From: Escherichia coli
GTDB taxonomy: Bacteria; Pseudomonadota; Gammaproteobacteria; Enterobacterales; Enterobacteriaceae
Assembly: GCF_003334385.1 (NCBI RefSeq)
Contig: NZ_QOWN01000205.1
DNA: 324 nucleotides
Reading direction: 5' to 3' (one strand)
Part shown: positions 94 to 324 of the stretch, one piece after another
Layout: every line of letters starts with the position of its first letter
How positions within the stretch are numbered: position 1 is the first letter of the stretch
The notes under the pieces: generated by a model
Told to the model about the DNA's origin: nothing
Databases searched by the model: none
The model's input: only the letters and a program-made list of their open reading frames with translations
Position numbers and translations under genes: made by a program

Positions 94-288
94 ATGACAT
101 TTGTTCATCAGGTGATGCTGTACTTCTGTACGGCAGTCTGTGTTATGTATCTTCTTTCGGGTGGGTACAGGGCAGTGCGCGATTTCTGGCGCAGACAGAT
201 TGATAAAAGGGCCGCTGAGAAAATCAGCGCCAGTCAGTCAGCCGGAACAAAAACAGAAGCCCCACTCATTCCGGAACAACCTTCTTAA
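94..288 (+). CDS. Hypothetical small single-pass membrane protein, 64 aa
   Basis: Complete ORF running from ATG 94 to TAA 286-288, with an in-frame TAA at 85-87 immediately upstream, so ATG 94 is the first possible start. Residues 3-22 (FVHQVMLYFCTAVCVMYLLS) form an uninterrupted hydrophobic stretch of transmembrane length. It is followed by a cluster of basic residues (R26, R29, R33, R34, K38, R39), consistent with the positive-inside rule, i.e. N-terminus out and C-terminal tail cytoplasmic. The tail is hydrophilic and ends in a Pro-containing segment (APLIPEQPS). A purine-rich Shine-Dalgarno-like element lies 3-4 nt upstream. No competing ORF is present on the reverse strand. No homology search was possible. 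Confidence 0.6.
   Translation: MTFVHQVMLYFCTAVCVMYLLSGGYRAVRDFWRRQIDKRAAEKISASQSAGTKTEAPLIPEQPS
100..159 (+). other. Predicted transmembrane helix (residues 3-22 of the 64-aa ORF)
   Basis: Twenty consecutive mostly hydrophobic or aromatic residues, with no charged residue except a single His. They are bounded downstream by a GG-Y-R motif and a basic juxtamembrane stretch (RAVRDFWRRQIDKR). Judged by eye, without a prediction program. Confidence 0.55.
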
Positions 289-302
289 TAACCCCTTTCA
301 AC

Positions 303-309
303 GAGAAAA
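303..309 (+). promoter_or_regulatory. Putative weak ribosome-binding site for the downstream gene
   Basis: GAGAAAA purine-rich element ending 4 nt before ATG 314; only a partial match (GAGA) to the AGGAGG core. Confidence 0.25.
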
Positions 310-313
310 TCCT

Positions 314-324
314 ATGTCAGAAAT
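314..324 (+). CDS. 5' end of a downstream gene (partial; begins M-S-E, product unknown)
   Basis: ATG at 314 followed by TCA GAA and running off the window edge. It is preceded by a purine-rich GAGAAAA (303-309) with 4-7 nt spacing, a weak Shine-Dalgarno candidate. It lies 25 nt after the stop of the upstream ORF with no intervening hairpin. Only 3 full codons are visible, so the call rests mostly on context. Confidence 0.3.

Follow-up and report, generated by a model that had tools for sequence, protein, structure and literature searches.

DUF1378 and DUF826, a small gene pair of Stx-type prophages with a possible role in phage lysis

Several small proteins encoded in or beside phage lysis cassettes, among them RI and RIII of T4, LydB of P1, LysA of P2, and S21-71, set the timing of lysis by binding the holin. 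Small single-pass membrane proteins can also be essential extra lysis factors, as studies of Mu gp25 and LambdaSo Lcc6 have shown. The present work concerns a stretch of 324 nucleotides (nt) of Escherichia coli DNA (contig NZ_QOWN01000205.1, assembly GCF_003334385.1; the whole stretch is called the window below), which carries one complete gene for a small membrane protein and the beginning of a second gene: a 64 amino acid (aa) protein of the DUF1378 family is encoded at positions 94–288, and the first 11 nt of a DUF826 gene occupy positions 314–324, both on the plus strand. The gene pair is already catalogued and is an ordinary annotated feature of a well-studied prophage region; what is new here is a proposed connection of DUF1378 to lysis, which is a modest functional lead.

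The Mu gp25 “releasin” (DUF2730) is a 99-aa protein in N-out/C-in orientation with four periplasmic residues, whose gene follows those of the spanins; release of the signal-arrest-release (SAR) endolysin depends on it, and it also promotes release of the SAR endolysin of phage 933W (PMC9239132). Lcc6 of LambdaSo, a Shewanella phage, has 65 aa, of which residues 5–22 span the membrane and ~43 form a cytoplasmic tail, and is required for pinholin/SAR lysis in a lambdoid phage that has Rz/Rz1 (bioRxiv 10.1101/2024.01.23.576932).

By gene neighborhood, the strongest conserved association of DUF1378 is with phage lysis cassettes, and not with the gene downstream of it in the window. The explanation favored here, at about even confidence, is that DUF1378 is a lysis accessory factor and DUF826 its cytoplasmic partner. 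DUF1378 would then be an accessory component that tunes the triggering of a holin or pinholin, or the release of a SAR endolysin; DUF826 would most likely dock on the basic DUF1378 tail as a cytoplasmic partner or modulator; and neither would be a subunit of a large transporter. A more specific form of this, offered tentatively as possible rather than probable, is that the two together are an unrecognized extra lysis component of Shiga toxin (Stx) phages and other temperate phages of Enterobacterales, a nonhomologous functional analog of gp25 or Lcc6 that would control pinholin triggering or SAR endolysin release. If so, the pair would set the timing of lysis, and hence of the release of Shiga toxin and of NanS-p, the sialate O-acetylesterase encoded just upstream. 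In enterohemorrhagic E. coli, release of both the toxin and the phage depends on the lysis cassette directly downstream. About 18% of the complete genomes of E. coli contain DUF1378, often more than once, and the gene recurs in lysis cassettes throughout Enterobacterales. Should the pair act in lysis timing, two widespread but functionally uncharacterized families would gain a function, and toxin release would gain a controllable step.

Two small genes in a Stx-type late operon

The window is 100% identical to sequence in five E. coli chromosomes, and matches of at least 80% identity occur in 1002 of 5426 complete E. coli genomes, at a median of two and a maximum of seven places per genome. 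At one of the identical loci (NZ_CP075632), RefSeq annotation places it inside a lambdoid prophage, in the order Q antiterminator, tRNA-Ile, tRNA-Arg, tRNA-Arg, SASA-family esterase (nanS-p), DUF1378, DUF826, class II holin, lysozyme, KilAC antirepressor, Rz-type lysis protein, and terminase. The pair is on the same strand as these late genes, 3′ of Q and the tRNA genes and 5′ of S, R, and Rz. The same gene order is found in 933W and VT2-Sakai: this is the Q-to-S region of a Stx phage without the stx genes, and the window comes from the late (Q/pR′-dependent) operon of an stx-less, Stx-type lambdoid prophage of E. coli. In its lineage the block consists of nanS-p, DUF1378, DUF826, a terminator-like hairpin, pinholin S, SAR endolysin R, and Rz/Rz1. 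The holin is of the S21 type and matches holin PHROGs, and the endolysin next door has a SAR-like N-terminus (VSRKLRYGLSAAVLALIAAGASAP). The region is transcribed from the late promoter pR′ under Q antitermination (PMC8065619; PMC10462455), and nanS-p (z1466) is one of the late genes induced most strongly (PMC8065619).

The DUF1378 gene (94–288) is an open reading frame (ORF) running from ATG to TAA, and its product, WP_047660256.1, matches PF07125 over the whole of the model (E = 7.4e-35; residues 1–59 to model positions 1–59 of 59) and PHROG 494, a family of unknown function (E = 1.5e-36). Among 28 unique E. coli-type sequences, the ratio of nonsynonymous to synonymous polymorphism (pN/pS) in this frame is 0.16 over nt 1–105 and 0.26 over nt 106–165, compared with 1.4–2.6 in the other two frames. 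The downstream gene, of which only the opening M-S-E could be read in the first-pass annotation, is identified by homology search as DUF826, in agreement with RefSeq annotation. From its ATG (314–316, followed by TCA GAA AT, or M-S-E-I) it continues for 280 nt past the window (8314–8604 in L001, a longer record of the locus), and it encodes a 96-aa protein (WP_016237407.1) with matches to PF05696 (E = 8.8e-29; residues 1–57 to model positions 1–59 of 75) and to PHROG 311 (E = 2.7e-37), again a family of unknown function; pN/pS is 0.48 over codons 1–51. Because the Pfam matches are full-length and purifying selection is seen in the annotated frames only, DUF1378 and DUF826 are, on sequence evidence, genuine coding genes, each translated from its own start codon. 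The window proteins are full-length members of the PF07125/PHROG 494 and PF05696/PHROG 311 families of Stx phages, with no difference from them.

The suggestion in the first-pass annotation that the first ORF encodes a small membrane protein holds up. DUF1378 has a single hydrophobic segment (Kyte-Doolittle 19-residue maximum of 1.81 at residues 3–21, with a helix at about 3–24), no charged residue ahead of it, and seven K or R in residues 25–45; the tail is basic, with eight K+R to five D+E. AlphaFold2 yields a continuous helix over residues 3–49. The part conserved across the family is the transmembrane and juxtamembrane motif LYF..V.ALYL.[AS]GG[YW]..IRN[YW]. DUF1378 is likely a single-pass inner-membrane protein in N-out/C-in orientation, which would leave about four residues in the periplasm and a basic helix in the cytoplasm. 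Among 1.84 billion representative proteins, a profile search found only 32 clusters of the family, and every cluster whose source is named comes from Enterobacterales (Escherichia/Shigella, Klebsiella/Raoultella, Pantoea, Erwinia, and Mangrovibacter).

DUF826 has no hydrophobic segment (19-residue maximum 0.47), an isoelectric point (pI) of 4.05, and a net charge of −15. AlphaFold2 predicts helices at residues 10–17 and 20–50, with a predicted local distance difference test score (pLDDT) of 86–93, and a disordered, acidic, proline-rich tail at 51–96. On these properties DUF826 is likely a soluble, helical protein of strongly acidic character; it would be produced from the transcript that also carries DUF1378. 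At the end of the hypervariable tail stands a hydrophobic tripeptide that is conserved as TML, MML, MMM, or TMM (L001 8593–8601; 3235–3243 in L003, a locus of the Mu-like type described below). It is kept in lambdoid and Mu-like versions that are only ~47% identical, is absent from the L086 and L089 types, and has the look of a short signal for docking or degradation at the C-terminus.

Lysis cassettes and known lysis proteins

DUF1378 closes the lysis cassette in some 10 other lineages of Enterobacterales phages; in five of them it shares 4 nt with the spanin gene before it, the start of DUF1378 overlapping the spanin stop codon. The arrangements are varied. In Stenotrophomonas phage BUCT709, DUF1378 comes after pinholin, SAR endolysin, and Rz/Rz1; in L086, after Q, holin_3_1, lysozyme, a second holin-like gene, and an Rz-like gene; in L088, after muramidase, a holin-like gene, and Rz; in the Mangrovibacter locus L095, after lysozyme, DUF2570, and LysC; and in phage EKP1, after class II holin, lysozyme, Rz, and a hypothetical gene. 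The Klebsiella loci L101–104 have the order Q, holin_2_3, lysozyme, Rz, DUF1378, and the Pantoea loci L106/107 have Q, holin_2_1, lysozyme, Rz, DUF1378. It follows muramidase, a 92-aa gene, and Rz in L105, and holin_2_1 and lysozyme in L108; in L098 it stands directly before a spanin gene (DUF2570). These cassettes include three named holin Pfam families (2_1, 2_3, and 3_1), two endolysin families, and differing spanin families. Seven of 10 endolysins have SAR-like N-termini, and the other three are soluble. The association of DUF1378 with lysis genes has persisted through extensive mosaic exchange, which is why the lysis explanation is preferred here; it remains guilt by association.

At the level of the protein, DUF1378 resembles Mu gp25 in being small, with a predicted N-terminal transmembrane helix, about four predicted periplasmic residues, and a basic membrane-cytoplasm junction. 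The resemblance extends in part to gene position, in that DUF1378 lies within a few genes of the endolysin and its relatives in ~10 lineages come directly after the spanins, and to company, since like gp25 it occurs with both SAR and soluble endolysins. The 933W-type SAR endolysin on which gp25 acts is also the type encoded by the window's prophage. There are clear differences. The cytoplasmic domain of gp25 is anionic and 73 aa long, while the DUF1378 tail is basic and ~40 aa long, so that any anionic part would have to come from the separate DUF826 protein. In the window's locus, DUF1378 lies two genes upstream of the holin gene; and Stx phages have a pinholin, while Mu has no holin.

The likeness to Lcc6 (SO_4795), compared by description only, is in size (64 aa), position of the hydrophobic segment (~3–24), length of tail (~40 aa), and occurrence in a phage with a pinholin and a SAR endolysin. 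Unlike DUF1378, Lcc6 is encoded far from its lysis cassette, and no DUF826-like partner has been described for it. By analogy, DUF1378 may work in the manner of gp25 or Lcc6; it is not filed as a member of either family. A comparison can also be drawn with the antiholins. DUF826 is predicted to be soluble and cytoplasmic, like the small RIII protein of T4; the topologies of others differ from those predicted for DUF1378 and DUF826, RI having a periplasmic domain and LysA four transmembrane domains. A spanin assignment does not fit DUF1378 itself, which has no lipobox and no match to an i-spanin family.

The pair in other settings, and other explanations

Searches of phage records by tblastn find DUF1378 in 309 and DUF826 in 307, with identical taxon breakdown and spacing; the order nanS-p, DUF1378, DUF826, S, R, known from 933W and Sakai, is shared by about 300 phage records. 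In IMG/VR, all 80 lambdoid loci have the pair side by side, and the order nanS-p, DUF1378, DUF826, S21-type holin is invariant as far as each contig extends, with nanS-p alleles at 50–100% identity. A divergent version (~47% identity) is found in Mu-like prophages of E. coli, beside com-like and methyltransferase (mom-region) genes and with no lysis genes near; here the nanS-p/DUF1378/DUF826 triad is intact in 32 of 33 IMG/VR loci (L109–L141; L003 594–3246 is another example), the contig of the 33rd ending upstream. The cassette therefore moves between lambdoid and transposable phages. In L089–91 the holin gene that comes after the triad belongs to another family. Finally, in L086/L087, from a distant lambdoid phage without nanS-p, DUF1378 follows an Rz-like gene and is itself followed by a DUF826 homolog (in L086, hhalign probability 97.1%, E = 5e-11; PHROG 311, E = 7e-15), for which IMG/VR and phage-database searches returned no relatives.

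Survival of the pair in these four architectures supports a functional link between the genes, and adjacency in related genomes, which the first-pass annotation had proposed as a check on its reading, is borne out by the lambdoid and Mu-like counts and by the recurrence in L086. Its broader idea of a functional partnership stands in part: the pair is conserved, but the partner is not a membrane complex, and ~10 lineages keep DUF1378 with no detectable DUF826. DUF826 was never seen without DUF1378 among the loci examined, and DUF1378 without DUF826 is common.

Two possible substitutes for DUF826 were considered in lineages that lack it. The idea that the long tails of distant DUF1378 proteins (80–91 aa in all) are a fused equivalent found no support (hhalign probability 5.7%). 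In Pantoea (L106 5179–5346) and in a phage with a T7-like terminase (L108 4673–4903), DUF1378 is followed by ORFs for small, acidic, soluble products, of 55 aa and 76 aa, respectively; homology of these to DUF826 is not supported (probabilities of 0.2–0.3%, no PHROG match), and they may be analogous partners at most.

A number of observations weigh against a role in lysis, or against the particular form of it favored here. The PHROG and Pfam families of both proteins are of unknown function, with no match to a holin or antiholin family in either database. NCBIfam has no match for either; the sole hint of a spanin there comes from sub-threshold matches of a distant DUF1378 relative, P0242 (17 bits to TIGR03495, LysB, for which the cut-off is 92.75). 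The literature names both families in one paper, as unknown only, and nothing on either gene was found under the locus tags L0106, Z1467, and ECs1208. An apparent further mention of “DUF1378” (PMC7213743) was rejected as a typographical error for DUF1738. The N-out/C-in topology is based solely on hydropathy and the positive-inside rule. Homology to the Mu releasin was rejected: hhalign alignment of DUF1378 to gp25 has a probability of 0.2% over 8 columns, and there is no Pfam DUF2730 hit. The 32 DUF1378 clusters include no Shewanella protein that might connect the family to Lcc6.

Gene context also provides some unfavorable points. In E. coli the pair always accompanies nanS-p; the triad of Mu-like prophages is near com/mom-like genes and far from any lysis gene; and in an Erwinia Mu-like prophage DUF1378 follows a tail-fiber assembly gene. 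The interval between lysis and packaging genes in lambdoid phages is moreover a classic site for unrelated accessory genes (“morons”). Recombination has also separated the two genes. In a comparison of L110, L111, and L118–L120 with L109, DUF826 is 96–100% identical to the L003 type (100% in L110), with DUF1378 at 57–59% (59% in L110) and nanS-p at 55–61%, so that a recombination breakpoint must lie between DUF1378 and DUF826, and any interaction of the two proteins must tolerate swapped alleles. AlphaFold2 modeling of DUF1378 joined to DUF826 by a linker gave no confident complex (predicted template modeling score 0.18, mean pLDDT 54), a result that, since the model gives no contact information, is uninformative rather than negative.

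The constant company of nanS-p suggests a first alternative, which is considered unlikely: nanS-p, DUF1378, and DUF826 could be a three-gene accessory cassette in which the pair helps to localize, release, or regulate the sialate O-acetylesterase. The esterase gene is directly upstream in every E. coli-type DUF826 locus examined, with alleles of 50–100% identity; the triad behaves as a unit in two unrelated phage types, lambdoid phages with two holin families and Mu-like phages without nearby lysis genes; and a conserved terminator-like hairpin closes the block ahead of the holin gene. However, at least 10 lineages have DUF1378 without nanS-p, one of these (L086) having DUF826 as well, and in these lineages DUF1378 is embedded in the lysis cassette and is often translationally coupled to it. 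There is also no known mechanism that would join a 64-aa membrane protein to a cytoplasmic esterase.

Alternatively, the pair could be moron-type genes with no connection to lysis or NanS-p, inserted at permissive junctions and serving in superinfection exclusion, modification of membrane stress or host physiology, or lysogenic conversion. This too is considered improbable, although several facts are as it would predict: the sites are typical ones (edges of lysis cassettes, the right end of Mu, the position after a tail-fiber assembly gene in Erwinia), many lineages have a terminator-like hairpin right after DUF1378, and the family is a narrow one, confined to Enterobacterales. Other facts count against it. 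There is no promoter-like site upstream, a consensus scan for sigma-70-like promoters having no match in the window; the genes share the orientation of the late operon in every context; the 4-nt overlap with a spanin gene in five lineages is atypical of autonomous morons; and a PADLOC scan for defense systems found no match.

A further explanation, considered very improbable, is a strict form of the partnership to which the first-pass annotation pointed, by analogy to KdpF with KdpABC, CydX with CydAB, and AcrZ with AcrB: that DUF1378 is a stabilizing or regulatory subunit of a membrane machine encoded downstream. Like these proteins, DUF1378 is a small single-pass membrane protein that shares an operon with a putative partner, and the two genes are adjacent and co-oriented, have no terminator between them, and are conserved as a pair. 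Here, though, the operon is a phage late operon rather than that of a host transporter or oxidase, and many DUF1378 genes have no DUF826 adjoining. The analogy is also at odds with what the downstream gene is now seen to encode, an acidic 96-aa protein with one long helix, a disordered proline-rich tail, and no hydrophobic segment, and not a polytopic membrane complex.

The last alternative follows from existing annotations of this region. The DUF826 frame, +1 relative to DUF1378, is open upstream of ATG 314 as far as a TTG at position 200, and further, to a GTG, in most relatives. Long DUF826 proteins have been annotated accordingly in 933W (L0106, 148 aa; AF125520 25307–25753), in Sakai (orf43; AP000363 24801–25220), and in many RefSeq records (134 aa, which use the TTG and so include positions 200–313). 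These annotations differ from the arrangement described here in that DUF826 is merged with an unselected extension and DUF1378 is missed. Over DUF1378, the +1 frame has pN/pS of 2.6 (nt 1–105) and 2.0 (nt 106–165), like the noncoding +2 frame; in L015 and L003 the extension is closed, with no start codon; and the Pfam DUF826 model begins at the ATG 314 methionine. For these three reasons the long L0106, orf43, and 134-aa forms are, as far as sequence can tell, annotation artifacts that have hidden DUF1378, a long-standing error which the present analysis corrects.

Three database proteins (P0146, P0148, and P0183) do carry both Pfam domains, and PHROG 8301 spans both genes. The three are single-member clusters, and in P0146 and P0183 the fusion can be put down to a single A missing from the AAAA at 205–208, which shifts DUF1378 into the open DUF826 frame; these fusion proteins are probably mutations or sequencing errors and not products of programmed frameshifting, for which a run of four A is too short. 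That the window holds parts of one longer gene, either a long DUF826 overlapping the DUF1378 tail or a frameshift fusion at the A run, is hardly tenable in light of the lack of purifying selection in the +1 frame. Another depositor label for DUF826, “head completion protein” (PV340545.1 21194–21481; PQ600364.1 24397–24666), was rejected as unsupported by Pfam or PHROG.

The junction, nearby hairpins, and flanking sequence

The DUF1378 gene ends in tandem stop codons (TAA TAA, 286–291), the first at 286–288 and the second directly after it at 289–291. From the first of these to ATG 314 there are exactly 25 nt (289–313), as the first-pass annotation had it, and its reading of this spacer as free of a hairpin or T-tract is upheld by three approaches. 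A consensus scan finds no plus-strand terminator-like site in 286–324, the only such hit in the window being a weak one inside the DUF1378 coding region (116–135); the 71 nt around the junction have a minimum free energy (MFE) of −4.1 kcal/mol, weaker than that of shuffled sequences (mean −6.8, z = +1.16); and a search for a hairpin plus T-tract finds none within 90 nt of the DUF1378 stop. Because there is no intervening terminator and both genes are in a Q/pR′-dependent late operon, DUF1378 and DUF826 are almost certainly co-transcribed, as was also proposed from the window alone.

The spacer is unstructured and includes a weak Shine-Dalgarno-like GAG (303–305) within the motif CGAGAAAATCCY. 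Across 34 unique loci, in which the spacer measures 25, 35, 37, or 40 nt, this motif is conserved, and in the divergent L003 its position is taken by AAGGAG, a pattern that fits independent initiation at ATG 314.

The absence of a terminator between the genes is a trait of the window's lineage and not of the family, since there are classical hairpins with U-runs between DUF1378 and the DUF826 homolog in both L086 (5262–5318; GCCGGC...GCCGGC-TTTTTT) and L089 (1412–1488; GAACTCTGCC...GGCGGAGTT-TTTTATTT). Several lineages lacking DUF826 have a hairpin and U-run directly after DUF1378. In the window's own locus, the terminator-like structure comes 9 nt past the DUF826 stop, before holin S: a 12-bp hairpin followed by TTTTGTTGTTG (L001 8614–8642, 290 nt past the end of the window), with an MFE of −22.4 kcal/mol (z = −3.0), conserved in 13 unique sequences with compensatory changes in four of its 12 pairs. 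Polymerase modified by Q would read through such hairpins, and the one after DUF826 may plausibly insulate the holin gene; in lysogens, the insulation could be from Q-independent transcription entering from the stx/nanS-p side.

Upstream of the pair, positions 1–93 are the 3′ part of the 139-nt spacer between nanS-p and DUF1378 (from the RefSeq annotation of NZ_CP075632), nanS-p ending 46 nt before the window. No Rfam match was found in the window at E ≤ 1, and the fold of 1–93 is no more stable than those of shuffled sequences (z = −0.39). Just past the nanS-p stop, 21–33 nt upstream of the window, is a GC-rich hairpin (L001 7968–7980) flanked by A7 on the plus strand. On the minus strand it reads as a terminator, a hairpin and then TTTTTTT, with no evident leftward-transcribed gene for it to serve.

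Downstream, holin S and SAR endolysin R adjoin in L001, while many relatives (among L007–L085) have 400–1500 nt of DNA inserted between them. The insert in L011 (6803–7761) has a 211-aa ORF (PHROG 2091) and, on the minus strand, a 161-aa ORF (PHROG 2572), both belonging to families of unknown function.

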